Notes under the pieces: generated by a model
Told to the model about the DNA's origin: nothing
Seen by the model: only the letters and a program-made list of their open reading frames with translations
The model's database searches: none
Source of the DNA: a virus
Lineage: Duplodnaviria > Heunggongvirae > Uroviricota > Caudoviricetes
Direction: 5' to 3' (one strand)
DNA: 38,001 bases
IMG/VR virus record: IMGVR_UViG_3300029543_000199
Made by a program: the position numbers and the translations under genes
In this document: piece after piece, positions 4,855 through 36,086 of the stretch
Numbering within the stretch: position 1 is the first letter of the stretch
Layout of the letters: each line of letters begins with the position of its first letter

Positions 4855-5127
4855 TTAAAGTAATGCGCTCAGTTCAATGATGCACTGTTTCATTTTTTCT
4901 GCTTCTGTCATTTCACGAATGATAAATCTTGTATGACCATCCTCGTTCCAGATATTTGTGCATGTCATATCTTTGTAGTCAACGCCACCAATGTTTACAT
5001 TGGATAAATTAGCGTCAGACAGAATCTCAATATTAACTGCATCGTCTGTGATATAGTTGTTGCCATTGATCGTGGCGTGAATCTCTGTTCCGTTTGCGAG
5101 GATAATATTGTAAATAGTATTTTCCAT
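4855..5127 (-). CDS. Small phage protein (fibre-associated, unknown)
   Basis: 90 aa; its GGAGG RBS and first 95 nt lie inside the RT ORF. Confidence 0.65.
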   Translation of the reverse strand: MENTIYNIILANGTEIHATINGNNYITDDAVNIEILSDANLSNVNIGGVDYKDMTCTNIWNEDGHTRFIIREMTEAEKMKQCIIELSALL

Positions 5128-6304
5128 CTATAAAACCTCCAAATAAGTCATAGTAAAGAAGATTTAAGTTATCACGTTGTATCTTACTCATAAGGTGGCA
5201 GTGACCACCCATCCAGGAGCGAAACATATTTTCTACTTCCTCCTGTGTACGTTCTCCATTCTTAACCTTGATGCTCAAAGCTTTGAGTTTACGTCTCATA
5301 TCAACAATTCTTTTCGGATTGATTTTCCTTATTACTCTACCTGTGTCAGTGAGAGAGTAGGAGATTTGAAGAAATCTATAGTAGTCTGATAGCTTTACTA
5401 TTCGTGTTTTCTTCCTGTTCAATGTCATTCCGAGTTCCGTTGCTTTAGCTGCAATCTTAGCCTCAAGCTCTACAAGATATTCTCTGCTCTGAGATATCAC
5501 ATAGCTATCATCCATATATCTGCCGTAGAATTTCTGACCTTCTACAATCTTGACAAAGTTATCTATTTGCGTTGGATAATATATTCCGATTATCTGCGAA
5601 CACTGATCTCCAATATTTACAGATTTACGCATATACTTTTCGCCTGTATGAGCGGACTTCGGAACATTCAATCTGTATTCTGCAGAATTGAAAGGTGTTT
5701 CCATGCAATGCTCATATTCTTCGTCGGTCATATATGAGACATCAATCTTGAAATTATCGAAGATTAAGTCCAATAACCATAGCGAAAACTCATCTGTAAC
5801 ATGCTTTGCAATTTCTTTATATGCAATATCATGTGGTATGTTATCGTAGAATTTACTGTAATCCATCAGTAAGATGTACCCGTCATTTCCGTGCTGGCGA
5901 TAGTATTTGTGTAGATGATATTCAAATCTTTCGCGACTGAAAGTAATTCCTTTTCCTTTGAGCGACGCTCCATTATCATAGACGAGATAAGAGAGTATGC
6001 TCGGAGCAAGAACATTATCGCAAAGAGAATGCCGGATTACTCTGTCTGACATTTGAAGACCAGTAATGGGTCTTGTCTTTCCTCTTTCGTTAATAATGAA
6101 TTCTGTCGAGGCTAATGAATGGTAGTTTCTGCTCTTTAAAGCAGCTTTACTTTTCACAATATGCGGAAGAAAATTCATTTCATATTTCTGAACCTGTGGT
6201 TTCCAGTCAGAATCTTTCTTAGCCGCTATATATGCGTGATAAAGTGAATTCAGATTATATACAACGTCACACTCATCTTCAAATTGTGTGTTTGTATTAG
6301 TCAT
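5033..6304 (-). CDS. DGR reverse transcriptase
   Basis: Motifs ERGKTRPI, DRVIRH, GASLKGKG, MDYSKFYDNIPH, IGDQCSQ (DGR-type GxxxSQ) and catalytic YGRYMDD; no maturase or endonuclease domain. Confidence 0.95.
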   Translation of the reverse strand: MTNTNTQFEDECDVVYNLNSLYHAYIAAKKDSDWKPQVQKYEMNFLPHIVKSKAALKSRNYHSLASTEFIINERGKTRPITGLQMSDRVIRHSLCDNVLAPSILSYLVYDNGASLKGKGITFSRERFEYHLHKYYRQHGNDGYILLMDYSKFYDNIPHDIAYKEIAKHVTDEFSLWLLDLIFDNFKIDVSYMTDEEYEHCMETPFNSAEYRLNVPKSAHTGEKYMRKSVNIGDQCSQIIGIYYPTQIDNFVKIVEGQKFYGRYMDDSYVISQSREYLVELEAKIAAKATELGMTLNRKKTRIVKLSDYYRFLQISYSLTDTGRVIRKINPKRIVDMRRKLKALSIKVKNGERTQEEVENMFRSWMGGHCHLMSKIQRDNLNLLYYDLFGGFIDGKYYLQYYPRKRNRDSRHDQWQQLYHRRCS

Positions 6305-6452
6305 TTCTTTCCAAAATTATTTGACGTTTGTAGCAATCAGTCGTAACGAATTGCATCGCCTTTGTCTTTTAGTGCATTCCTGCACACGGACAATTTCTCC
6401 TTTCTTCGTTTCTTGTATCTGCATATAGCATAGTTAAACAAGTGGAAGAAAT

Positions 6453-6565
6453 CGGACGAACACCATTAGAATTAGAAGCGTTGTTGTTGTTCGCATTACC
6501 GTTGTTGTTCACATTAGCGAAGTTAGTCGCACTCCTAACACCACGGAGCCAATAGTTGAAGCGAC
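6453..6565 (-). repeat. DGR template repeat (TR)
   Basis: 113-bp ungapped match to 7252-7364. Contains 13 AAC/AAT codons and 30 adenines on the sense strand; lies between avd and RT. Confidence 0.96.
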
Positions 6566-6606
6566 TAAACGGCACAAACATACAGAAATTGCCCGGATTA
6601 TTCTTC

Positions 6607-7158
6607 TTATGCTTTCACAGATTCTTTCTCTCTGTTTAAAATACTCTTACGAATTTTGTTGTCAGATTTTCTCCAACCTTTGATTAACGCCTGTTCTTGT
6701 ATAATCATATTTGTGATATTTTCATATTTTTCTATATTGACAGGCAGAGTGGTAATGATATACTGTAATTCTTGAATTAAGTTCTCGCAGTGACCAAGAG
6801 CTAAGTCCTGATGTATTCTGCGTTCATCACACTCACTAATGAATTGCGGACTAATTTCATTAGCTAGAAAAATTTCATGTACCATATCACGGGTAATTTG
6901 TATAATTGCTTTCTGCTCATCTGGTATAAACCATTCTACAAAAGCTTCATATCGCTCCTTGCGCTTAGCAATATTGCGATCATAACCGTCCTTTTGATTT
7001 TGACTCCATCCTGCGTATGCGTCTGGCTTAGGTTTTTCTTCATATTCCTTTAAACCAAACTGTCGCAAAGCAAGGTCTGTAATAACAGTTCTTACTTTAT
7101 ATGCATGATGCTCAACCTCGAATGGAGATGGCTTTCTATTTGCTTTCAGTACCGACAT
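6607..7158 (-). CDS. avd: DGR accessory variability determinant (Avd-like four-helix bundle)
   Basis: Located between target and TR; helical; begins MSVLKANRK and ends LIKGWRKSD. Start placed at ATG 7158 behind GGAGGG. Confidence 0.8.
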   Translation of the reverse strand: MSVLKANRKPSPFEVEHHAYKVRTVITDLALRQFGLKEYEEKPKPDAYAGWSQNQKDGYDRNIAKRKERYEAFVEWFIPDEQKAIIQITRDMVHEIFLANEISPQFISECDERRIHQDLALGHCENLIQELQYIITTLPVNIEKYENITNMIIQEQALIKGWRKSDNKIRKSILNREKESVKA

Positions 7159-7174
7159 CATTCCCTCCGTATTA

Positions 7175-7199
7175 CCCACCCACCTAAAGGTGGGATGGG
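7175..7199 (-). promoter_or_regulatory. GC-rich hairpin/cruciform downstream of VR (DGR target-recognition element)
   Basis: ccca-cccacc-taaa-ggtggg-(a)-tggg, 35-60 nt after the target stop codon. Confidence 0.7.
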
Positions 7200-17772: not shown

Positions 17773-20700
17773 CTACCATTGATATTTATTTTTTGATAAC
17801 TTGCTACCACCAGATAACTGGTCAACAGTCATAGAACGAATCATCTTTTCAAACTTTCCGTCCTTACGCATCTGATTCATAAAATCATTGTAGTCTTGTA
17901 CATGTTCTATCGGAATTGTTACCTGATAGGTGATGTCTCCGATATTTGTTTCTCTGCCTGATATTGGCGCACCAATTTTGGCAAGTTGTGATAACACATT
18001 CGCAGCACCATCGTCTCCTCCAAACAGTTCGCTCAAAGGATTGTTTCCGTCTGCGATACTCCTCATAGCATCTTTTAATGCAATAAAGTTTTGTGTATCT
18101 TTCGGGTTAAGAACCATTTCAGGTTCTGTAGGCGTACCATCAAGCCAAGCCATTCCGGTATAATCAGCCAGACCACCCTTCTTAAATGCACTGTAGTAAT
18201 ATTTAGAAAGATTGCTCTTTCCCGTACTTACCCAGTATCTATACAAATCTCCATTATTGGCGTGAGCATTGATGTAGCTCTGCACGGCAGCCGCGTTAGA
18301 TGCTCCGAATTTAGCGGTAAGACGTTTCTTTCTGTTTGGGTCATTTCCCCACCCAGATTTAGAACCGTAAATCCAGATAGCAGCAGCAACGCCACGTTTT
18401 ACATCCTCATTGAATTTCGGAGTATTGTTGGTTGGTTGCTTAGCAGGAGTATTTGCTTGTGTAGGTGGTTTTGCGGACGTATCCGTCTTCGTTGATGGAG
18501 TAGCAGAAGATATAGTTGAATCAGCCTTCTTATCACTTTCTTTTACCATAGCACCAATTTTGTATGCTATTTTTGTGATAACATCATTTACTGATGTCAT
18601 CTGTGTTAAGAAAGATTCTCCATATTTTGTAATGATGGAGCCTGCGCCACCCTCATTTGTCCAAATAGACTTCATTGCAGCGGTTAAATCGTAACCAACT
18701 TTATCACTCTGCGTTTGCAGTGTGGTACTGATATTGGCTGAATTCTGATTGATAGTGTTAATCATATCAGCCATTAAAGCATCGATGTTATCCAGGCGTT
18801 CATTTAGGATAGCTTCATACTCATCATACAGATTGTCGAGAAGCTTTTTCTGTTCACTGATATAGTGTTCATACTGAGTCTCCTCAAGATTATCCATAGC
18901 ATCAGCTAAGTCAACCTGAATTTTCTGTATGGTTGCTTTAGTCTCTTCTGAGTTGTCGCCGGAATAAGCAGCTAACTGTTTCTGAAGCTTAGAGATTTCT
19001 GATGTCTGTTCCTCAACCTTTTTCTGATAATCATACAGATCCTTGGCTGTATCCATAGCATCTGTATATCTATCAATCAAATCCTGTAATGCATCAAGCT
19101 CTTTTTCGATACCATCAGCAACAAGGTCTTTAATAGCCTGTTTCTCATCCTCTGCGGCAAGGATAGAATCACGTTGAGCCTCAAGTAAATCCTGACGATG
19201 CTCCAGAAGTTTCGTGTTGTTCGGGTCTTCTGCAATCTCGGCATTTAACTTCTTCAATTCCTCTGCATACTTATCAGCCTGAGCCATGTACACATTATAG
19301 TTCTGACCGTGAAGACCTAGCGTTGCCATTCCGGTATCAGTAAACTGTCCGTTATCGGTAAATAAGTTAGAGTTCTCCATTAAGTCGATCAGGAAGTCCG
19401 CCTCGTCAGTGATGTTACTGATTTGCTCCTGCAAGTAATCGAATCTATCCCACTTTGTCTCACGAATTGAGTTCTGGAATTTTACAAGAGCTGTTTCAGA
19501 TTCCTGGATTTTCTCCTTAACTCCGTTGATATCATTCTGCATGTCATACCATGCTTCGCTGCCTTCTTTGATTTCTCCAGAGTTGACAGCTTCCGACATA
19601 GACCGAACAAGTGAGTCAAGCTCTTTCTTCTGAATATCAATGTTTTGTTTCTCAACATTTTGCATTGCTTCGTAGAACTTAGTGCTTGCCATATATCCTC
19701 GTTCTTCAAGGTCATCTATGCCATTATCATACGTATTCGTGAGATGCTCTAAGAGACTGAGCTGGTTTTCAAAATCGTTTGAGAGATTATCGAATCTGTC
19801 TTTGTATAAGTTGGCGATTTCTTCGTGCAGATCCGCAACAGCGTCCTTCGCTTCAATAGCCTTCTCGTAAAAGTCCTGATAATCCTTAATCTTATCGGCG
19901 AGGTCTTCATCAGTAACAGTCGTGATTTCAATCGAACCGTCTCTGATTTTTCTAGCCCAAGATTCGTCAAGACCGAGAGAATTGGCTTTTGCCATATATC
20001 CCTCATACGCTCTGTTCTCTACATCAATCTTATTTGCAATAGCAGACATTTCAGAAACTAATGCACTATTACGTGTGCTAAGAGTCTTGAATGCACTATC
20101 AGCAGTTACTTTCAGTCTATCTATTGCTTCGGTCGCTCTATCGACAGCAATCGCAATAAGGTCAAATACTTCTTCAAATTCTTTTTCAGACGAAGAGGAG
20201 CTTGATTTAGATCCACTTGATTTCGATGACGAAGAACCTCTGGATGAACGAGATGAGCTTCCAGAACTTTTCTTCGATGAAGAAGATGGTTTTCTGCTTG
20301 TAGAAGATGAGCTTGGCTTATATGGTTTGTATCCGCCAGTAACCATCGCTGTACCGCTAACTAGAGCAGAAGCCCGTCCAGAAACATATCCGTTCTCAAG
20401 TAAGCTTTCGGTCTGCTTGTGATTGAATACGATTGCTCCTGCTGGTATATCTCTAAACTCCGCACCATTGTCTCCGACTGTATACCATCTGCCGGTTCGT
20501 GGGTCTACAACAATTTCGCGACCAAGTTCTCCAACAAGAGTGCTGCCGCCAGGTGCTGTTCCCCAGTCTCCGCCAGCTCTCGCAGTTCCGCCAGCATGAG
20601 CGGTACCGCTTACATTTGAACCAGTTTTTACATAGTTTACATACCGTGTAATCGTACTGAATGAGCTAGGGAGGTTTGCAGTATTAGCTATATAGTTTAC

Positions 20701-23700
20701 AGTTCGATTGATAGAAGAGAATGATTCGGGTAATAAGTCTGTCTTCGGGTCATAGATAACATCGCACTTCTTTGACTCAGGATTATACCCGTCTATTGCC
20801 GACGCATCGACATTTGCCTTCACATTTATAGTCTCCGCAGATAGTCCAGCGATAGATGTTTTGATGGAATCAACCGATGTTGAATCAATATTCAGCTTCG
20901 CTTTGATATCTGGAGAAATGCCTTCTATTTCAGAAGCCAGAGAATTTACTTTCGATTCAGCTTCAGATGTATCAGCACCGACTTTCTGTTTAATCTCAAG
21001 GTCGTTTGTTGCGTTCTGGAATTGCTGTAAAAGAGATATTGCGTTTCCAATTTCGCCTTCTACCTGAGATGTATCAACCCTCATTACATCAGGCTGTGAT
21101 AAAAGCTGCTTCTGAGTGAGGCAGTATTGAATAACAGCATTGGCATTATCAATACTTGACGCATCTACGTCAGGTCTGGCTTTTACGCCATCCATTTCTG
21201 CTATAGTTGCATCCAATGCATTTATCTGTTCTTCGGTCGTTGAAAGGTCAGAGACATCCATTTTGATTTTTAAATCGCTATTTCCGTCCATCTGTCTTAG
21301 AGATTCCGCAGCCTCATTAGCTTCTACAGCTAAATCGCCTATAGTCTTTACGGCTTCATCTCCCCAGTCGAAATTTGCACCTTTAAGCTGAAGCTCATCA
21401 AAGAATGCCTGAACAACACCTGATGATAAATTAAGACCTTCTGCAAAATCCTCCATCTTCTTGCCACCGAGGACTTTAAATCCATCGTCTTCACTGTATG
21501 ACATAAGACCTGCATCAACAGATTTCTGCAAGAACTTATCTACATCAAGTCCCTCTACAACTCCGTCATCATCAAATCTCAAATATTCTTTGAAATTTGC
21601 CATATATGATTCGATTGCACTAAGGTCTTCGCTATCTACAGAATCTGGAACGATGAAATCTACAGCTGCTTCAAATTTCTTTGAGCCAAAGTTTCCATAT
21701 ATATCTGAATTTGCGTCGTATGTGTCTCGAATTTGCTGTATAGCACTAACCGTATCATTTGCCATGTCGCCATAGTCTGATGCGCCTTGTGCGTTCAGCC
21801 AGTTCTGATATGCTCCGACAGCTTCCTGAATAGAAGCAGATAATAAATCATACTGAGCACAGTTATCTGCAATAGCACTATTTTCGGATAATAAGGCATC
21901 AATAGAAGCTTGAATACTTTCCGCAGTTTCTCCTTCTGCGAAGCTTGCGTCTTGCAACTGCTGACGATACTGTTCAATCTGTCTTGCATTCTCAAGGTAC
22001 TGAGCCTGTTCAAGCGCCTTGTTCGTGTTGTTTGTTGCAACCTGCTCTTCGGCTTTAGCCTTAGCAATCTCACGAACTTTCTCTGCATTTAACTGCATTG
22101 TACCATTGACATACTCAAGAGCACCTCTGTAATCTGCAAGTTCGTCTGAATTGAAATCTGCAAGAGATACAGACTTGCCGTTCTGCTGACTACTAAGAAC
22201 ACTCTGTACAGTTGTAAGACCATTAACAAGATTTTCAGCAGCAGTACGCATATCTGACATAGATACTGTTGTTTCTTCCATTCCTTCTACAGGCTCTCCA
22301 GAAACAACGCCGAGTTCAATAAGCATATTCGCGAGTGACTGCAGGCTCTCGGAAGATGTATCGCTGATTACACCTGCGTCAAGCGCAGCCTGTACCAATG
22401 CATTTATCTGTTCTTCGCCTTCCTGTACACCATCTGTTTCAAATGCATATATGAAATCTTTGTCATCCAGCTTTAAGTCTTTCAGTTCCTTCGCCGCATC
22501 TGCAATTTCTTTTGCTCCGTCTGACGTATCAATACCATTGACTGCATCCTTAAAATCATTCGCACTGATAGCAGCGGTGTTTAGCTGATCGCTAATTTCT
22601 GTGAATGAGTCAGCGTATCCGCTCATATCAGATTCCAGAAGTGATTGAACGGACTTATCTACAGCGTCAAAGTTTGTCTTTGCTTCAGCTATTTTGGATG
22701 AGTCTCCGCTCGCGAGAGCATCATTATATTCCTTTACCGCTTGGGAATAATCACGCATCCACTCAGCGGCTGTCTTAGAATCTCCGCTTTTGTCTTTATA
22801 TTCAGTTTTATCTCCGGCGATTTCAGCAGCTTTTGCCTGTTCATACACTTCCTGATATTTATCCAGAACTTTGTTTGCACTTTTTAGACCACTTTCTGCA
22901 TAACTGAATATATTGTCGAGCATCCAGTTCCCGCCAAGTTCATCTGATGCATTTCTGACATCTGTCATGAAATCATTCAGAGCGGCTTCTGCCTGTGTTG
23001 CGTCTCCTTTAAAGTAGAGCTGCAGCGTACCGTCTAATCCCTGCTGTGTTGTTATTAAATCTCCATATTTTTTCTGAGAGTTCTTAATCGCCTTTTTGAG
23101 AGCCTCAGACGCTTCGTCTCCCTCTGCATCATAAAACTGTCCAAGGTAATAGGTTCTGTTTTTCTCCATTTCCTTGGTTGCTTTGTTGATACCTTTTTGA
23201 TTCTCATTCAGATACTTATTTGCATCTGACTGGCTTAACTGATCCATCAGACCAATCTGCTCACGCAGTGATCCATTTACGAGGTCAATTCCGTCAGCCT
23301 GACTTCCATATGAATCTGTTAATGACTCCTGAATTGATAGAAGCTCTGATTTTGCCTGATATGCTTCTGATTCCGTAAGCGTACCGGATGCTAATTGATT
23401 CCTTAATTCTACAACTCTATTTTTATAATCTTCGATGGAACTGTTTGATTCCTTCCACGCATTACCAGCTTCTTGAGCAGCCTGAACCTGTTTTTGCATG
23501 TAGTTATCATATATTTTCCATCCAATGAATGCTGCGCCTACAAGTGCGATAATTCCTACAAGAGGTGCTAACGCACCGAATAAAGCAGTTGCTCCTGCGG
23601 CGACCGCACCGAATACTCCGGCTCCGCCTGCGAGTGCAGTTGACATAGCTTCAACCGCAATAGTTACTTGCGGAAACGCAGTTCCTAATGCTTGTATGAT

Positions 23701-23742
23701 GCTTGTAAGTGTTTTTGCTCCTTCGATACCTTTTATAGCAGA
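17773..23742 (-). CDS. Tape measure protein, exon 2 (1989 codons)
   Basis: The frame is open 32 codons upstream of ATG 23646 (SAIKGIEGAKTLTSIIQALG...) to the predicted 3' splice site. There is no RBS at 23646. Long helical Ala/Glu/Lys/Leu-rich sequence. Confidence 0.88.
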   Translation of the reverse strand, partial: SAIKGIEGAKTLTSIIQALGTAFPQVTIAVEAMSTALAGGAGVFGAVAAGATALFGALAPLVGIIALVGAAFIGWKIYDNYMQKQVQAAQEAGNAWKESNSSIEDYKNRVVELRNQLASGTLTESEAYQAKSELLSIQESLTDSYGSQADGIDLVNGSLREQIGLMDQLSQSDANKYLNENQKGINKATKEMEKNRTYYLGQFYDAEGDEASEALKKAIKNSQKKYGDLITTQQGLDGTLQLYFKGDATQAEAALNDFMTDVRNASDELGGNWMLDNIFSYAESGLKSANKVLDKYQEVYEQAKAAEIAGDKTEYKDKSGDSKTAAEWMRDYSQAVKEYNDALASGDSSKIAEAKTNFDAVDKSVQSLLESDMSGYADSFTEISDQLNTAAISANDFKDAVNGIDTSDGAKEIADAAKELKDLKLDDKDFIYAFETDGVQEGEEQINALVQAALDAGVISDTSSESLQSLANMLIELGVVSGEPVEGMEETTVSMSDMRTAAENLVNGLTTVQSVLSSQQNGKSVSLADFNSDELADYRGALEYVNGTMQLNAEKVREIAKAKAEEQVATNNTNKALEQAQYLENARQIEQYRQQLQDASFAEGETAESIQASIDALLSENSAIADNCAQYDLLSASIQEAVGAYQNWLNAQGASDYGDMANDTVSAIQQIRDTYDANSDIYGNFGSKKFEAAVDFIVPDSVDSEDLSAIESYMANFKEYLRFDDDGVVEGLDVDKFLQKSVDAGLMSYSEDDGFKVLGGKKMEDFAEGLNLSSGVVQAFFDELQLKGANFDWGDEAVKTIGDLAVEANEAAESLRQMDGNSDLKIKMDVSDLSTTEEQINALDATIAEMDGVKARPDVDASSIDNANAVIQYCLTQKQLLSQPDVMRVDTSQVEGEIGNAISLLQQFQNATNDLEIKQKVGADTSEAESKVNSLASEIEGISPDIKAKLNIDSTSVDSIKTSIAGLSAETINVKANVDASAIDGYNPESKKCDVIYDPKTDLLPESFSSINRTVNYIANTANLPSSFSTITRYVNYVKTGSNVSGTAHAGGTARAGGDWGTAPGGSTLVGELGREIVVDPRTGRWYTVGDNGAEFRDIPAGAIVFNHKQTESLLENGYVSGRASALVSGTAMVTGGYKPYKPSSSSTSRKPSSSSKKSSGSSSRSSRGSSSSKSSGSKSSSSSSEKEFEEVFDLIAIAVDRATEAIDRLKVTADSAFKTLSTRNSALVSEMSAIANKIDVENRAYEGYMAKANSLGLDESWARKIRDGSIEITTVTDEDLADKIKDYQDFYEKAIEAKDAVADLHEEIANLYKDRFDNLSNDFENQLSLLEHLTNTYDNGIDDLEERGYMASTKFYEAMQNVEKQNIDIQKKELDSLVRSMSEAVNSGEIKEGSEAWYDMQNDINGVKEKIQESETALVKFQNSIRETKWDRFDYLQEQISNITDEADFLIDLMENSNLFTDNGQFTDTGMATLGLHGQNYNVYMAQADKYAEELKKLNAEIAEDPNNTKLLEHRQDLLEAQRDSILAAEDEKQAIKDLVADGIEKELDALQDLIDRYTDAMDTAKDLYDYQKKVEEQTSEISKLQKQLAAYSGDNSEETKATIQKIQVDLADAMDNLEETQYEHYISEQKKLLDNLYDEYEAILNERLDNIDALMADMINTINQNSANISTTLQTQSDKVGYDLTAAMKSIWTNEGGAGSIITKYGESFLTQMTSVNDVITKIAYKIGAMVKESDKKADSTISSATPSTKTDTSAKPPTQANTPAKQPTNNTPKFNEDVKRGVAAAIWIYGSKSGWGNDPNRKKRLTAKFGASNAAAVQSYINAHANNGDLYRYWVSTGKSNLSKYYYSAFKKGGLADYTGMAWLDGTPTEPEMVLNPKDTQNFIALKDAMRSIADGNNPLSELFGGDDGAANVLSQLAKIGAPISGRETNIGDITYQVTIPIEHVQDYNDFMNQMRKDGKFEKMIRSMTVDQLSGGSKLSKNKYQW

Positions 23743-23745
23743 CTC

Positions 23746-23774
23746 TTTTCAAAGGCAATATCGTGTGGTATGAT
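23746..23774 (+). promoter_or_regulatory. SigmaA-type promoter of the intron-borne antisense gene
   Basis: TTTTCA (23746-23751), 17-bp spacer, extended -10 TGgTATGAT (23766-23774), then an AAAGGAG RBS at 23781-23787. Confidence 0.65.
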
Positions 23775-23796
23775 AGGTGAAAAGGAGAATAATCAT

Positions 23797-24306
23797 ATGT
23801 CACTTATTACATGTCCGGAATGCGGTGCTCGCATATCCGATAAAGCATCATGCTGTGTACGGTGTGGATACCCATTACAAGATGTGGATAAAACACCAGA
23901 TTTATATTATGTAAAGCGCATTGAAGATAAATGGGTGCTAGGCAAAGCAAGATCAATGCTTGCACAAACATACATTACAAATAAAAATTCATCCGAATAT
24001 TCAGATTATTCGATAATAGCATCTGGTATTACAAAAGATAGAGCCGATATACTGCTTGACTTCATTATTAAAAATAGAGGAGAAGCAGAAGTAGTACCGG
24101 ATGAAAATAGTAAATCTGTCAATCAGAAGATGATGGATTATATTGACATTAACTTCAATAAGAATGCGCCTGTAATGTGTCCGCGTTGCAAATCCACGCA
24201 GATCGTAACTGGTCAAAGAGGTTTCAGTCTAATAACAGGATTTATTGGAAGCAATAAGACTGTAAACCGTTGTTCCAAATGCGGTTACACATGGCAACCA
24301 AAGTAA
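23797..24306 (+). CDS. Zinc-ribbon protein (169 aa) encoded antisense inside the intron
   Basis: Four CxxC motifs (CPEC, CVRC, CPRC, CSKC) and a C-terminal GFSLITGFIGS segment. ATG 23797 has an RBS. It is the only well-supported plus-strand gene. Confidence 0.85.
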   Translation: MSLITCPECGARISDKASCCVRCGYPLQDVDKTPDLYYVKRIEDKWVLGKARSMLAQTYITNKNSSEYSDYSIIASGITKDRADILLDFIIKNRGEAEVVPDENSKSVNQKMMDYIDINFNKNAPVMCPRCKSTQIVTGQRGFSLITGFIGSNKTVNRCSKCGYTWQPK

Positions 24307-24738
24307 TATCTTCTTATCGACGCAGATATTGTGCGTACCACATTTAAAGTAGGAGATAAGTTCCCACTACACGAGGACTATACATTAAAAGTCGCTACAC
24401 TAGGCTGTAGCGGCTCAAAGGGTGGGTAGTCTCTGAAGATGAAGCTGTGAGTCTTCGTCCGGCTGATGTTATCCTATCCGTAGAAAATACTTCTACATGG
24501 CACTTAGGCTTACTATCACCATATACCATCCAATCATTTGTTTCTGCCTTTCGCAACATTCACGCTTATTGTTTCCAATTACGTTGTAGTATGATTGGTT
24601 TAACCAGTTTCCCAGCAATTACCCCTTCGTGTGATTTATTTTAAAACGCTCACCCATAGTCTTGGCTCATACCTCCATAACGGTACGTCCTTAACCATGC
24701 CGACCTCTGCCATAAAAGCAACCCATGATTTTGGGTTA

Positions 24739-26529
24739 AGCCACGTTCTTGATGACCTTGGCAAGTCCCAATCCTGCAAGAATTGTTCCTAATGATCCAA
24801 CGGTCTCAACGATTTTATCAATCGCTTCTACGATACCTTTAAGACCTTCGACGGCTCCTTTTGTAAAGTTTGAACTGATAAAATCAGAAGAAAGCTCCTG
24901 AAAGGCTGCTTTCAGTTCTCCGACCTTAGCCTTTGTGGTATCCATATATATATTGTTTGCTTCGGTAGCAATACCAGCAGAATCCATAGCACTTGAGTAT
25001 GCTCCGATAGCGTCTTTGATATTCGTGATTGTAGACATAATACCTGATGTATTACGAGTACCACCAAGAATCTCTGCGACACGAGATTGAGATACATCTT
25101 CCATGTTATCCCAAACCTCAGCCAACTGTACAAATATGTCGTACATGTCTTTATATGTGTTTTCATCTTTCATGATGTCAACGCCAGATAAAGCCTTGAT
25201 TTCTTCCCTGTACTTAGACAGACCCTGAGCTAATCCGTCTGTTTCTTCGCCCATTTCTTCAAGCTCTGTTGTAGCTCCTCGGATACGAGCACTGACTGTC
25301 TTCCACATTGTACCAGTGGTTTCTGCATTCTGAAGAGAAGCATTGGTAGCAGCAAAAAGAGCAGCACTCTTTTCAAAATCAGTTCCAGAAGCGTGGAGCG
25401 CAGCACCACCTCTCTGGAATGCAGCCATCAATTCTTCCGCTGAAATTGCGTATTCCTGACCGACCTTAACAAGTACATCTGATACATGCTCCGCATCATT
25501 AGCATCTAACTCGTATCCCTTTATAATAGAAGTAATACCAGTTGTTGCTGTGTCTACATCAGTATTACCAACGTTCGCCATGATATTTGCATACTTAGCA
25601 AGGTTGGAAGAATCACTCATGTTGTAACCAAGACGAGCAAAAGTTTCAATAGAAGATGCTACATCAGTTACGCTCTGTCCAAGCTCTTTTGCAAGTGCAA
25701 TGGATTTCGTAAGGAATGCTTCCATCTGAGAATCAGAGGCTCCCGTTACAATCTTAATCTGAGCCATAGCACTTTCAACTTCAACCGCAGCAGATACCAT
25801 CTGCTTTGCAGTTCTTACAGCAGTCATGATTACCTGTGTGATAGATAACCAAGATGCGAATTTGGTTGCTAAACCACCGAATCGATCTCCAAGTGTTTGG
25901 GTATTTTCACCAGCAGCTCTGATTGCAGCAGAAGACTCTGTAACAGTTGATTTGATACTACGGAATGAGTTCTCGAACTGTTCAGCAGATACAGTTCCGT
26001 TCATCAATCCAGACTTCAATGTTTCAAGCGCAGTAATCTGACCCTTTAATGCAGAATAATTATCACTGGATTTACCGCTTCTTGCGGCAGTCCATTTCTG
26101 TGTGTTGGCAGTAACCTGTCCAAGTAATGTGTTGACTTTATTTAAGGCATCGGTGTGCTTCTTTGTACCGGCTGCAAAAGTATCCTCACTTGCTTTTGCC
26201 TGTTTTGTCGCATCGGCGGCTTTCTTTGTAGCACTGGCATTTTCATTTTTTGCCTGCGTATTAGCTTTAATAGCAGCAGTGTCTTTTACCCAGATACCAG
26301 AGTTAGTCTTGGTATAGCCACCCATTGACTTCGCCGTATTCGCAGTTGCCGCAGCCTTAGTCATTGATTCAATCTGTTTCTTCATAGAAGACAGGGATGA
26401 ATCATCAAATTTAAGTTTTATTTTCGGTGGATTGGCGTTGACCTGAGAAACCAGACTGGTAATTCCTGCCTGAAATTCAGCATAACTCAACGAAGTATCC
26501 ACGCCGACTGTCAGTAAAATGTCAGCCAT
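24739..26529 (-). CDS. Tape measure protein, exon 1 (597 codons, TP901-family core)
   Basis: TP901-like core (VESAMAQIKIVTG, FARLGY, DVLVKVGQEYAIS, SARIRG); ends at the predicted 5' splice site GCT|TAA. Confidence 0.9.
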
Positions 26530-27161: not shown

Positions 27162-27773
27162 TTATTTATCCCCTTTTGTCATCGGAACGACTTTATTCTT
27201 TCTGCTCTGAGATGCGAAAGCCTGTACAACCTTACCTTCGTCGATATCTCCACTGGAAACTGCGTTGATGAGCTTCGCAACATCATCTGTAGACACTCCG
27301 GCAAACATATTTTCCATGCTGCTTGTCAAATTTTCAAATTCCTGATTGAGACGATTCATCTGAGCATATACCATCTGTACATTCATCTGAGCCATATTAG
27401 AAATCTTACTTTCGATAGCATTGATAATCTCTCCAAACTGGCGACCTTCGATATGATTAAGAACCGCATCTACGATATCTGAATTATAGATAGCAGCGTA
27501 TCTCTCCGAGAGATCTTTTGGCAGATCAAAGTTAGCATACATCTCAAGCAAGCAGCTCTTGATTGCAAAGTCTTTTACTTCCGGCATATATTCGCCTTCT
27601 TCACTGAAACATGTTTTAACAACATAATCAACAAATTCGAGCATAACATTCATAGGTAACACTCTGTTTACAACAACTTCCATACCATTCCATTCAAATG
27701 ATGATGTTGGTTCTGCAATATTGCTAACGGCTTCCATCAGTGTTGCTGCGTCGATTCTATTCGCTTTTTCCAT
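27162..27773 (-). CDS. Hypothetical protein, possible tail assembly chaperone
   Basis: Acidic helical 203-aa protein between major tail and tape measure genes. Confidence 0.5.
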   Translation of the reverse strand: MEKANRIDAATLMEAVSNIAEPTSSFEWNGMEVVVNRVLPMNVMLEFVDYVVKTCFSEEGEYMPEVKDFAIKSCLLEMYANFDLPKDLSERYAAIYNSDIVDAVLNHIEGRQFGEIINAIESKISNMAQMNVQMVYAQMNRLNQEFENLTSSMENMFAGVSTDDVAKLINAVSSGDIDEGKVVQAFASQSRKNKVVPMTKGDK

Positions 27774-28245
27774 TATTCTGTTCCTCCATTTTCTCTTTCT
27801 TTGCTTTAAGTCTTTCTCTTTTTCGGATGGCTCTTTGTTGTTTTACGTACTCGTAAGAACGCCAGCCTCCGTCTATTCCGGATAGTGTCATCCATCTATA
27901 ATCCACATCCGGGTACCTGTACCAAAATAACTTTCGTTTAATGTTTGCAACTGAGTCAGGACATCCTTTGATATCAATAACAACCTGCGATCCGTCTCTA
28001 TATTCGATGAAAAAATCAGCGACATAAGTAATAGGGTGAACTGTTTTATCATCGTGTTTAAACTTTGGTTGTAACTCATATGGTTTCTGAAGCTCGACAT
28101 TGACCACATCGCCACTCTCCATTAAAGGGCAAAGCACATCACGATAATATTTCATCTCCATAATTGAATCGAATACGATGTCATTATAGGTACGCTGAGA
28201 AGTGTCTTTATCGACATTAAATTTTGTCCTTGCGATAATAATCAC
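27757..28245 (-). CDS. DUF1064-family PD-(D/E)xK endonuclease-like protein
   Basis: FDSxxE, LQKPYELQP, ITYVADF, VIDIKG and KRKLF motifs. Confidence 0.75.
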   Translation of the reverse strand: MIIIARTKFNVDKDTSQRTYNDIVFDSIMEMKYYRDVLCPLMESGDVVNVELQKPYELQPKFKHDDKTVHPITYVADFFIEYRDGSQVVIDIKGCPDSVANIKRKLFWYRYPDVDYRWMTLSGIDGGWRSYEYVKQQRAIRKRERLKAKKEKMEEQNNGKSE

Positions 28246-28301: not shown

Positions 28302-28586
28302 TTACTCTGTATCTTCCTCATCGAAATCGTCCTCAAACCAAGAATCTTCCCCGTCGCATTCGTCGAGGTCGCTATAGTTCAAAGACGATTCAGCAGGCTT
28401 TTTGTTTGGAACTATTTGATTTGCATCTTCAGCCCGTGATGCCTCAATCTCTGCAAGGTAGATACTACCATGTTCGGGACAACACGCAACATCCTGATAC
28501 CGGAAGATACCATCTACTCGTCTAAGTGTGTGGCAGTATTCATATTCTTTACCACACACTTTACAAATTCTTGTAGCTGTAGGCAT
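28302..28586 (-). CDS. Small Cys-rich (zinc-finger-like) protein with acidic tail
   Basis: CKVCGKEYEYC...CCPEH; ATG 28586 after GGAAGGTGG. Confidence 0.7.
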   Translation of the reverse strand: MPTATRICKVCGKEYEYCHTLRRVDGIFRYQDVACCPEHGSIYLAEIEASRAEDANQIVPNKKPAESSLNYSDLDECDGEDSWFEDDFDEEDTE

Positions 28587-28675
28587 TATTCCCACCTTCC
28601 TAATTCCGTCACGAGACTCTTTGTAGTTTCATCTACAATAGTTTTACTGTCATTCGTGAACAATGCCTGCGCTCT
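28586..28675 (-). other. Putative 29-codon stop-readthrough extension of the major tail protein
   Basis: In frame after TGA-A: RAQALFTNDSKTIVDETTKSLVTELGRWE. Its TAA overlaps the next ATG (TAATG). Confidence 0.5.
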
Positions 28676-33938: not shown

Positions 33939-33987
33939 TATAAAAATCCTCCTTGTAAATTATTTAGTTAGCATGACTGGCGATTCT

Positions 33988-34497
33988 TTAGTCAATCTTG
34001 ATAACGTAGTATGTGTATCTACCGGCGATTTCAACGTCGATAATCTTTCCAACAGTTGTTGCACCAGAAGTTGCAGATGCGGCAACATTCAGTTTTGTGC
34101 CAGCTGCAAGCTCTACAATATTTCCCTTTGCAGGGGATGCGAGACCTGTCAGAGCTTCTTTAGTTACGGAGAACATATTTCCGGAATGGAGTCTATATCC
34201 TCTGCAAGCCTTGCCAGCCGGGTTAATGAATTCATCCAGGTTACGGAGTCTTTCGTCATACGGTACTTCCGGTGCTGCAATCAGTACGACCTCGCGAATC
34301 GGTGTATCTTTTGCAACATCTTCTCCGAGGAATACCTCGCGTTCACCGTCCATAAGATCAGAAGCTTTCAGGACACTTCCGTTTTCAATTTCGGTAGCAG
34401 TATTTTTACCTGTACCCATGTATTTAACAGACACAAGTTCGCTACGAACATCAGTACCAGTCATGTTGTCTGTTCTAACAACGCCATATTTAGCCAT
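33988..34497 (-). CDS. Capsid decoration/stabilising protein
   Basis: 169-aa beta-rich protein (IENGSVL) between scaffold and capsid genes. Confidence 0.6.
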   Translation of the reverse strand: MAKYGVVRTDNMTGTDVRSELVSVKYMGTGKNTATEIENGSVLKASDLMDGEREVFLGEDVAKDTPIREVVLIAAPEVPYDERLRNLDEFINPAGKACRGYRLHSGNMFSVTKEALTGLASPAKGNIVELAAGTKLNVAASATSGATTVGKIIDVEIAGRYTYYVIKID

Positions 34498-34511
34498 AAA
34501 TTTTTACCTCC

Positions 34512-36086
34512 TTATTCTTTAGCAGAGAAGCCGTACTCCTCAAAAAGACCGCCATAAGGCTGGTCTGCTTTGTTATTTTCTGGTGTTTCGATAGGTAGTT
34601 TAGGAGCCTTCTGACTGAAATTCATTTTAGTCTGTATTCCACGTCTACCACGAATTGCATAGCATTTCTCCTCAAGAGCATCCAGTTCAAACTTCATGCA
34701 GTCAGCATCACAATCTGTCTTTAGATTTTCAAATGCTTCTACACCTACTAGGTCTTCAAATTTAGCGAATACTTCTGCAATTTCAGATTTACGAGCTTCC
34801 TCCATAGCAGCTGTTTCTGTATCAGCTTTAAACTTACGAAGTTCCTCAAGCTCTGCCTCCATAGAAGTAATCGTTTCAGATGCGTTCTGGTATTTTGCTT
34901 CAAATTCAGCAGAAGCAGCGAACTTGTCAGTGATTACCTGTTCCATCTGCTCAAATACCTGCGCAATAGGAGAAACCTGCTCGCCCTCATCAAAATCAAC
35001 GATTACATATTTCTTGCGCTTTTTGTTCTCAAAATCGATTTCAATACTGTCTCCGTTTGTCTTGTAAGAGAATCCATAGAGCAGCCAATCGGTTCTGTCC
35101 CAGCAGTAAACTTCCATAGCGTCAAAGTCACAATCTACAAAGAAATAGCGACTGCATTCGCCCCATTCACACTGGATTTTCTCTGCATCGAGTGCTCGCA
35201 TGATTTCATCAACGACATTACTTGTAAGGGCGAATTTATTTTTATCTATATCAACCTCTGGGTCAGACTTTTTGTCAGCCTCTGTGATTGCTTTGAATTT
35301 TTCTTCAAGCGCCTCAACAGTAAAATCATCAATGGAGAAATCAAGAGTATTAACATCAATGCCATACTTTTCAATTAAATTCTGTTTATCCAATCCTTTA
35401 CTTCCTCCTTCCATTGAGTATTTGTGTGAGTGTATATTGCCAGTCTCATCAGAGACAGTGACATCTTTAAAACTATCCTTTAGCTCAAGCATCATCTTAG
35501 AAAATTCCTGTTTGAAATCCTGTTTTGAAAATGCAAGAGATGCAGATTCATAGCACGGTTCAACACCGATCAATGCAAATGCTGTAAACTCAAAATCTTT
35601 GATACAGTAAATCCCATTGATGGTTTCACCATCCTTGACGGTAATTTCCATGCTTTGAGCTGTAATTCCATCTTTTTTGATTTTCCTATAAGCCTCCTGG
35701 CGCTTCCAGATCAAAACCTCAGCGCACAGATATTCGTTTACAGTACCGTCATCTTCCTCGACAGTTTCCCAGTATACTTTTGCCGTCTGCGGAACTACAC
35801 CAATCGGCTGTGTCAGATTCACAAGAATCAGACTACCGTCATCCTTACGGACAAGTTCCATATCATGACCGCCGAGAGTATCAGTCTCTCTGTCGTAATT
35901 GCATACAACCGGGCAGTTATAAATCGTTTTGATGCATCTCTCAAATACATCTTTAGAAATAGAACTGCCATTTCGGTTATCTCCTGTGTATGCGATACGG
36001 AGAATCCCGGAATCAAAAGAAGAGTTAATCTCGCATAAATCGGTTAAAGATGATGCATATGTAAGATTTAAAATCTCTGTTTTCAT
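34512..36086 (-). CDS. Prohead protease-scaffold fusion
   Basis: N-terminal YTGDNRNGS, GGHD, QSMEI, ALIGVEPCYESA; acidic coiled-coil C-terminal half. Confidence 0.75.
   Translation of the reverse strand: MKTEILNLTYASSLTDLCEINSSFDSGILRIAYTGDNRNGSSISKDVFERCIKTIYNCPVVCNYDRETDTLGGHDMELVRKDDGSLILVNLTQPIGVVPQTAKVYWETVEEDDGTVNEYLCAEVLIWKRQEAYRKIKKDGITAQSMEITVKDGETINGIYCIKDFEFTAFALIGVEPCYESASLAFSKQDFKQEFSKMMLELKDSFKDVTVSDETGNIHSHKYSMEGGSKGLDKQNLIEKYGIDVNTLDFSIDDFTVEALEEKFKAITEADKKSDPEVDIDKNKFALTSNVVDEIMRALDAEKIQCEWGECSRYFFVDCDFDAMEVYCWDRTDWLLYGFSYKTNGDSIEIDFENKKRKKYVIVDFDEGEQVSPIAQVFEQMEQVITDKFAASAEFEAKYQNASETITSMEAELEELRKFKADTETAAMEEARKSEIAEVFAKFEDLVGVEAFENLKTDCDADCMKFELDALEEKCYAIRGRRGIQTKMNFSQKAPKLPIETPENNKADQPYGGLFEEYGFSAKE

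Follow-up and report, generated by a model that had tools for sequence, protein, structure and literature searches.

The tape measure protein (TMP) gene of a phage, encoded on the minus strand of a 38,001-nucleotide (nt) stretch of viral DNA (Caudoviricetes; IMG/VR record IMGVR_UViG_3300029543_000199; the whole stretch is referred to below as the window), is almost certainly interrupted at positions 24738..23743 by a group I intron, the ribozyme part of which is secure, and this intron holds in its P9 region a gene on the opposite strand, hereafter the cargo gene. We consider it probable that the intron self-splices from late TMP mRNA and that the cargo is an independently transcribed accessory gene residing in the P9 loop and not a homing nuclease. 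This reading is favoured because the cargo shows no nuclease features, has a domain of the bL12 type, possesses a promoter of its own and, in a related intron, is accompanied by cassette neighbours of the accessory type.

The TMP is split between two minus-strand open reading frames (ORFs). The first (26529..24736) specifies a 597-amino-acid (aa) TMP part that matches PF10145 (E 1.4e-25) and positions 396-939 of phrog_4211, and the second (23646..17773) a 1957-aa TMP part that matches positions 1005-2603 of the same family, positions 939 and 1005 thus bordering the gap between them. Upstream of its ATG (23646), the second ORF has another 32 codons in an open frame, to about 23750; these codons align with intron-less TMPs, and no Shine-Dalgarno motif precedes the ATG. 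In the intron-less viral contigs L009 and L011, whose TMP is 78% identical to exon 1 at the aa level, the TMP frame runs without a gap through the junction and aligns residue for residue with the window, exon 1 reaching to ...NVA and exon 2 resuming at SAIKG.... The fit to these alleles, together with the U at position -1, the terminal G and the P1 and P10 pairings described below, sets the boundaries at 24738 and 23743, and the spliced TMP is predicted to comprise 2586 residues. The original prediction had recognised a minus-strand group I core between two TMP-like ORFs, had delimited the intron as 23743..24738 and had called for a comparison with intron-less alleles at related TMP loci; the core is indeed present there, the boundaries agree to the nucleotide over all 996 nt, and colinear intron-less alleles have now been found in L009 and L011. 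The intron recurs at 96% identity in the nearest record, G001, and at 89-100% identity in L003-L008 and L010. The parts of the interrupted gene are as follows.

24739..26529, minus strand: TMP exon 1, 597 codons, final codons AAC GTG GCT with U as last base; defined by the ORF, PF10145 and phrog_4211
23743..24738, minus strand: group I intron, 996 nt, first nt 24738, terminal G 23743
17773..23742, minus strand: TMP exon 2, 1989 codons plus stop, starts UCUGC, frame open from 23750

The elements of the ribozyme, all on the minus strand, and their two-sided (compensatory) changes among ten sequences are these.

24739..24743, minus strand: P1 5' strand, exon UGGCU, pairing with GGUCG at 24705-24701 with a U.G at the splice site
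24701..24710, minus strand: internal guide, GCAGA (P10 partner) plus GGUCG (P1 partner); exon 2 begins UCUGC
24720..24737, minus strand: hairpin in the P1 loop, AACCC...GGGUU, two-sided change in 3 of 6 pairs
24668..24687, minus strand: P2 hairpin, two-sided change in 4 of 6 pairs
24627-24623 / 24422-24418, minus strand: P3, enclosing P4, the P5 domain and P6, 2 pairs with two-sided change
24616-24612 / 24466-24462, minus strand: P4, 1 pair with two-sided change
within 24418..24627, minus strand: extended P5 domain, 13 pairs with two-sided change
24460-24437, minus strand: P6, 4 pairs with two-sided change
24433-24427 / 24380-24375, minus strand: P7, forming a pseudoknot with P3, invariant in the ten sequences
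24416-24389, minus strand: P8, two-sided change in 5 of 9 pairs
24349..24367, minus strand: P9 hairpin, 2 pairs with two-sided change

Across these ten sequences, which are 65-93% identical, the helix set (P1 hairpin, P2, P3, P4, extended P5, P6, P7, P8 and P9) has 95.4% of its cells paired, as opposed to 34-43% when the partners are slid against each other, and two-sided change occurs in 34 of its 73 pairs versus 3-9 with slid partners; none of 500 shuffles matched the observed covariation score. Pairing is complete in P3, P4 and P8 and reaches 95% in P6, while P7 is constant, so that covariation neither supports nor contradicts it. By eye, the core elements look like the consensus of the Rfam group I model RF00028. 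The ribozyme is 92% identical where the synonymous sites of the cargo gene are near saturation (pS 0.63). P1 and P10, for their part, follow the exons of each lineage: exon 2 of L008 and L010 starts with UCUGU, which is matched by the guide ACAGA (P10), and L050 has the same UCUGU with the guide GCAGA, both being partial re-matches; L055 is fully re-matched to different exon ends, with UAAGU/GCUUA in P1 and CAACU/AGUUG in P10. At its 3' end, the window's intron closes with ...AAAAGAG before exon 2 begins with UCUGC. The spacing from P7 to P3' is only 4 nt, with no extra helices in between, and by the subgroup rule the intron may belong to a subgroup other than IA1 or IA2.

About 125 nt of P4-P5 (roughly 24626-24500) match, at 73-82% identity, non-coding DNA of 91 phage records whose hosts are Staphylococcus, Lactococcus, Enterococcus, Brochothrix and Listeria; in phiIPLA-RODI the match stands directly behind a truncated tail-tube coding sequence. 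The P4-P5 region seems to be a ribozyme module in wide reuse, one that RF00028 misses. A P5-extension piece of about 43 nt within it (24548-24590) is common to many otherwise unrelated contigs from several metagenomes.

The 1.09-kb region between the two TMP ORFs also houses the sole convincing plus-strand gene of the 38-kb window. The cargo and the features around it are listed here (CTD, C-terminal domain).

23797..24306, plus strand: cargo gene, 169 aa, composed of a zinc ribbon, a bL12-CTD-like alpha/beta domain and a second zinc ribbon
24336..24342, minus strand: P9.x 5' strand UGUGGUA, pairing with 23770-23764 and closing the cargo loop
23764..23770, minus strand: P9.x 3' strand UACCACA, 566 nt downstream of the 5' strand
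24305..24330, minus strand: local hairpin AAUAUCU...AGAUAUU, adjoining the cargo stop codon
23746-23774, plus strand: promoter-like site TTTTCA-17-TATGAT, with a TG ahead of the hexamer (TGgTATGAT, extended -10)
23782-23788, plus strand: ribosome-binding site (RBS) AAGGAGA, 8 nt before the ATG

How can a gene of this size be accommodated without harm to the ribozyme? The long-range P9.x helix would place the cargo in a terminal loop, the usual site of intron ORFs, where the gene need not disturb the fold. Variants of this helix occur at the homologous position in L046/47 (UCAUGGUA/UACCAUGA), L050 (UAUGGUA/UACCAUA) and L048 (AUGGUG/CACCAU), with compensatory change at three helix positions among them; when bridging helices were searched for blindly, the best one did not rise above shuffled controls, so that the case for P9.x is made by homology of position and compensation only. 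The hairpin at the cargo stop codon has compensatory variants as well (AUGUC/GACAU in L008 and GUGUC/GGCAC in L010), and no T-run follows it on the plus strand. On the plus strand the TACCA bases of the P9.x 3' strand read TGGTATGAT, an extended -10 box, which means that promoter and helix overlap in the very same bases. The pattern TGnTAnnAT upstream of the cargo is kept in L046, L050 and L063, and an extended -10 is found in four of the six lineages read, L048 and L055 having plain -10-like hexamers in its place. The earlier description of the cargo as antisense, located 3' of P7 in the P9 region and equipped with its own RBS and promoter thus stands, with the extended -10 conserved to the extent just given.

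The cargo belongs to a sizeable protein family: a word-indexed search gave 104 homologues, and a profile search with the cargo family 376 clusters at E<=1e-30. With dN/dS ratios of 0.05-0.08 in four orthologue pairs (dS 0.55-1.5, synonymous sites near saturation), the cargo is a real gene under strong purifying selection. Conservation within the family is confined to the two ribbons, CPECG...C..CG at the N-terminus and CP.CGS...RGFS..TGFIGSNKTVNRC.KCG..W.P at the C-terminus, and the centre is variable; the four CxxC pairs are invariant in 60 family members, among which no Asp, Glu or His is invariant. The AlphaFold (AF2) model (mean confidence, pLDDT, 84.9) has a beta-alpha-beta-alpha-beta-alpha centre, whose best structural match is the L7/L12 CTD of M. 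tuberculosis (Z 5.8, root-mean-square deviation (rmsd) 3.1, 61 residues aligned), followed by ClpS (Z 4.3-4.7), and the C-terminal ribbon resembles GRF, NrdR and TFIIS/Rpb9-type ribbons at Z 3-4. Foldseek returned no match to the model in the PDB at E<=1e-3. The family profile matches L7/L12 chains in the PDB at E 6e-4 to 0.01, the chain of T. maritima at E 6e-4, and PF00542 (Ribosomal_L12, the C-terminal domain) passes its cut-off (25.9 bits) in eight of ten longer relatives (27.6-65.1 bits), some of which have two copies. These sequence and model comparisons are suggestive of a bL12-domain family, of which the window's cargo may be a diverged member, the indication for this individual protein being weak.

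Is the cargo nevertheless a nuclease in disguise? No nuclease family was recovered in Pfam, PHROGs, NCBIfam or PADLOC, the matches being to zinc ribbons only and NCBIfam and PADLOC giving nothing at or above cut-off; none of the ten longer relatives has a nuclease domain; and no nuclease fold appears among the top 50 structural matches of a wide VIA search, an absence that does not exclude one. Fused or longer forms did not emerge from the word search, and those from the profile search add only bL12 domains. Neither the cargo nor the cassette genes of its relatives belong to the TnpA or TnpB families of IS200/605 elements. The original prediction of a non-nuclease cargo is upheld at the level of family and motif, and no match to a nuclease fold speaks against it.

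The association of ribozyme and cargo was assessed from an exact 18-nt core motif, which occurs at 28 viral loci, 25 of them with a ribozyme confirmed by nhmmer and the remaining three, without ribozyme, being chance matches. One of the 25 is cut by the end of its contig; in all 24 assessable copies, the core is followed immediately on its 3' side by an antisense member of the cargo family, and none of these copies has lost the ORF or decayed. A scan with a strict R...S motif found the window-type core only in L043-L050. Among the 79 cargo-family loci that were fetched, the cargo stands head-to-head with a minus-strand ORF of at least 400 aa in at least 50. Of 21 opposing ORFs tested for family membership, eight are distal TMP parts that start at about phrog_4211 positions 890-1020 and one is a methyltransferase; no family was found for the other twelve, though the context marks three of these as TMP exon 2. 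Family members also exist outside introns (L051-57, L080, L116, L120), in L051-54 and L057 as free-standing genes on the same strand as the TMP and two genes upstream of it. The 24-of-24 co-occurrence and the recurrence of the cargo at the TMP site in two ribozyme lineages together suggest that the association is old and selected.

Divergence is distributed unevenly over this arrangement. Between lineages, the ribozyme retains 65-93% nt identity, far more than the exons, at 25-54% aa identity in distant pairs, or the cargo, at 38-54% aa identity. When the window-like L043 is compared with L046 (the same as L008), identity is 92% in exon 1 and 91% in the ribozyme and then drops to 40% in the cargo and 39% in exon 2, which implies a mosaic breakpoint between ribozyme and cargo (at about 24300 in window coordinates; L008/L010). 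Divergent TMP halves may recombine with the conserved ribozyme as their anchor.

A second intron lineage occupies the same place. In L063, L064, L070, L071, L090 and L119, the TMP is interrupted where the window's TMP is, and the insert opens, as in the window, with a hairpin TRACCC...GGGTTA; about 360 nt of conserved non-coding RNA are common to these inserts, and among relatives the intron length ranges from 1.6 to 2.8 kb. The copy in L063 serves as the example.

L063:2446-5221: L063 element, 2776 nt, with a P1 of 6 base pairs (bp), a P10 of 5 bp, a terminal G and four antisense ORFs

Its exon end GUAGGU pairs with the guide GCCUAU (6 bp, with a U.G at the site), the start of its exon 2, UCAUU, pairs with the guide AAUGA, and joining the exons gives a frame that continues as in the intron-less allele. 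The core helices of this lineage were derived by eye and with RNAalifold and show only eight compensatory pairs; the element is likely a group I intron too, less securely so than that of the window. All of its ORFs are antisense and comprise a gene of the zinc-ribbon family, a DUF6173 protein and two proteins of no recognised kind; the zinc-ribbon gene, with TGTTATAAT in front of it, is the one closest to the 3' splice site. A 4.8-kb TMP gap in L068-type phages (L150) was considered as a further intron and rejected, as it has no intron-like start and contains minus-strand ORFs. In several other records (L137, L143, L148 at 851-1102 and 1675-2101, L036, L039, L040 and L042), the TMP is interrupted more than once, in some with two tandem ribozyme copies and in others with frame-changing gaps of about 0.5-1.2 kb in the exon 1 region.

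In the scenario that we favour, late transcription would read through the TMP gene on the minus strand and the ribozyme would fold; guanosine would then attack after the U at 24739, and the joined exons would encode one TMP of 2586 aa, while unspliced RNA would be translated only up to a TAA formed by intron nt 1-3. Splicing of this kind, from late TMP mRNA and by the intron itself, is predicted from the sequence features set out above. With late transcription off, the cargo would be transcribed from the plus-strand promoter within the final 54 nt of the intron, with a start predicted near 23781, and its product may bind translation GTPases or the ribosome through its bL12-CTD-like domain, this being the weakest step. 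The ribozyme would act as a splice-neutral harbour inside an essential gene, in a slot that can grow into an antisense multi-gene cassette. The original prediction had likewise proposed a neutral carrier for a moron-like gene; the carrier part agrees with the cassette of the sister lineage (DUF6173 and the two other genes), but a random moron is too weak a description for a gene found in 24 of 24 copies and in two lineages. In one study, two metatranscriptome contigs span 24402-24732 and 24390-24667 and no more: they comprise the ribozyme core to P8 from 6 nt inside the 5' splice site, and neither exons nor cargo. Such contigs would suit an excised intron RNA that is stable, although the hint is weak.

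A number of observations weigh against this scenario. At its gathering threshold RF00028 matches nothing in the window, and even with E<=10 allowed it stays silent on 23300-25100 and on 24300-24760 (461 nt). Neither a joint across the intron nor an intron-less DNA form is present in the assembled contigs of eight public runs, a result that is weak either way. Promoter-like sites in the region number five, with 4.6 expected, and are thus at chance level. The structural match at Z 5.8 lies below the level of a safe fold match, and PF00542 is not listed for the window's own protein at E<=0.01, being below gathering. The window has no lysogeny gene, which leaves the earlier suggestion of expression in a lysogen without support here. 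Finally, perfect retention of the cargo and the use of a single TMP site by two ribozyme lineages are what would be expected of a site-specific mobility protein and not of a passenger.

The RF00028 result deserves separate comment, given that the original prediction had named this search as a check and a missing hit as an outcome that would speak against it; formally, that is the outcome obtained, and the same holds for 20 related loci, in which the model finds no match. The model also misses homologous stretches in two staphylococcal phages, although in one of these loci (L002) it does find three other introns. We read its silence as insensitivity, and regard it as outweighed by the intron-less alleles, the splice-site rules, the P1 and P10 pairings that track the exons, and the covariation of the core.

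The main rival to the accessory-gene reading takes the cargo as a mobility factor, that is, as a new, non-canonical homing protein that cuts or nicks the intron-less TMP site or marks it for nuclease or recombination, the bL12 domain being a variable adaptor. The cargo does occupy the position of a homing endonuclease gene (HEG) in the terminal P9 loop, it is intact in every assessable ribozyme copy, its family recurs at one TMP site in two lineages with the head-to-head arrangement and the distal TMP ORFs counted above, and the intron coincides with mosaic breakpoints (L043 versus L046). That the conserved parts are the two ribbons, that the C-terminal one has a weak likeness to the GRF finger by which NEIL3 binds ssDNA (Z 4.0, rmsd 1.9, 38 residues) and that free-standing members exist, as they do for homing genes, would all agree with such a role. 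Yet the cargo displays no nuclease family, motif or fold and no invariant acidic residue or His, its ten longer relatives contain no nuclease fusion, and its cassette neighbours are of the accessory type; moreover, between lineages cargo identity (38-47% aa) trails ribozyme identity (72-82% nt), as would not be expected had the two recently moved together as a unit. On balance, a mobility factor seems unlikely, even though it must be taken seriously.

Less probable still is that the cargo serves the expression of the intron or the TMP, either as a maturase-like splicing cofactor or because its antisense transcription acts as a brake on splicing or on the TMP until late in infection. Zinc ribbons are often nucleic-acid binders, the gene is strictly retained with the ribozyme, cargo transcription proceeds head-on towards the TMP and across the ribozyme in antisense, and the bases shared by the -10 box and the P9.x 3' strand would physically couple transcription to folding; against this, family members live outside introns and the central domain is bL12-like, with no known RNA-binding maturase fold, which makes such a role rather improbable. 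Very improbable is the view that there is no active intron at all, the TMP being made as two polypeptides and the ribozyme-like sequence being a relic or an intergenic structured RNA beside a divergent gene: it would account for the silent RF00028, the lack of junction reads in contigs, the stop at the end of exon 1, the in-frame ATG at 23646 in exon 2 and the intron-start-less 4.8-kb gap of L150 with its minus-strand ORFs, but it is contradicted by P1 and P10 tracking the exons in each lineage, by covarying core pairs, by a ribozyme so well conserved next to nearly saturated synonymous sites, and by the 32 open codons before ATG 23646, which align with intron-less TMPs and lack a Shine-Dalgarno motif.

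How does the accessory-gene reading compare with systems already in print? Group I introns in TMP genes were described by Tourasse and Kolsto 2008 (PMC2504315), who reported TMP-IVS1/2/3 at three sites in prophage TMP genes of the Bacillus cereus group. As in the window, these introns have P1 and P10 adapted to their sites, several introns share a site and intron-less alleles exist; they were, however, reported as IA1/IA2, either without a complete HEG or with endonuclease genes, and their description mentions no conserved antisense non-nuclease gene. The capsid-gene intron of mycobacteriophage LittleE (Pope et al. 2013; PMC3706429) is likewise of group I, interrupts a gene for a structural virion protein and has an ORF on its bottom strand, but that ORF resembles a LAGLIDADG homing endonuclease, whereas the window's cargo has no nuclease signature and is conserved with its ribozyme across deep divergence. 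IStrons, in which a group I ribozyme is joined to an IS200/605 element (Tourasse et al. 2014; PMC4227781), are similar in that a non-HEG cargo in the 3' part is rendered harmless by splicing; they differ in carrying a TnpA/TnpB transposon and using many sites, where the window's intron has one fixed TMP site, no transposase and an antisense cargo with its own promoter. Introns of the T4 td/I-TevI type, too, are of the self-splicing kind, interrupt essential phage genes and accommodate an ORF in a peripheral loop (PMC3706429, PMC3984707), only that theirs are sense-strand HEGs, while the cargo is antisense, has its own promoter and lacks GIY-YIG, HNH, LAGLIDADG or PD-(D/E)xK features. Phage proteins of varied architecture with a bL12 C-terminal-type domain under purifying selection were reported by Mizuno et al. 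2019 (PMC6375957); in contrast to the window's cargo, they come from phages of Proteobacteria, none is reported in an intron and zinc ribbons go unmentioned in the main text. Intron-rich gut phages have also been reported (PMC12880540).

The original prediction knew of no description of the arrangement. This stands for phage group I introns with a conserved antisense gene that encodes no nuclease, of which no description was found in the literature covered, including the accessible parts of PMC3984707 and PMC11835236 and leaving out most subscription journals; it does not stand for the other components, as TMP introns (PMC2504315), an antisense ORF (PMC3706429) and IStrons (PMC4227781) are in print. 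The unusual part is therefore the conserved non-nuclease antisense passenger, TMP introns themselves being already known.

What might this arrangement mean for the phage? If the accessory-gene reading is true, it would offer a route by which accessory genes settle within an essential late gene without burdening it, and it would give the bL12-domain proteins of phages a defined genetic niche. The customary view of phage group I introns is that of selfish pairs made up of a ribozyme and a homing nuclease; the ribozyme considered here appears to have kept a different passenger through deep divergence, in a slot that is expandable to several genes. Introns that RF00028 does not see imply, in addition, that split TMPs of this kind are likely mis-annotated in gut phage catalogues as two genes plus a hypothetical gene. 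Going further, and with considerable doubt, one may tentatively picture the TMP-site introns of large gut Bacillota phages as heritable antisense expression platforms, with a promoter whose -10 box shares its bases with a ribozyme helix, with the zinc-ribbon protein as a new non-nuclease factor that keeps the element at its one conserved site or spreads it there, and with sister cassettes of up to four genes.

Among the tail genes of the window lies a DUF1064 gene encoding a PD-(D/E)xK-like protein (27760-28245, minus strand; PF06356 at E 5e-29; phrog_190, 'Holliday junction resolvase'). The intron-bearing L004-L008 and L010 have this gene, and L009 and L011, which lack the intron, have none upstream of orf203. 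The gene was considered as a general partner in collaborative homing; this was rejected, as the gene tracks the intron only in close relatives and occurs in none of five distant intron-bearing records (6-77% complete). It may be a free-standing selfish nuclease. Just upstream of it, a 97-aa Cys-rich protein with an acidic tail (28305-28595, minus strand) has no family match above cut-off.

The remainder of the window is a minus-strand virion and lysis module with a portal, structural proteins, the TMP, a 2158-aa host-range protein and an endolysin. The only other plus-strand ORF (33973-34554, 194 aa), Cys-rich, without a family match and situated between complete minus-strand structural genes, is probably spurious. 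At 5036-7179 on the minus strand, amid genes of the tail-fibre type, there is a diversity-generating retroelement, which includes an Avd-like protein and whose reverse transcriptase matches phrog_1423 (E 3e-58).

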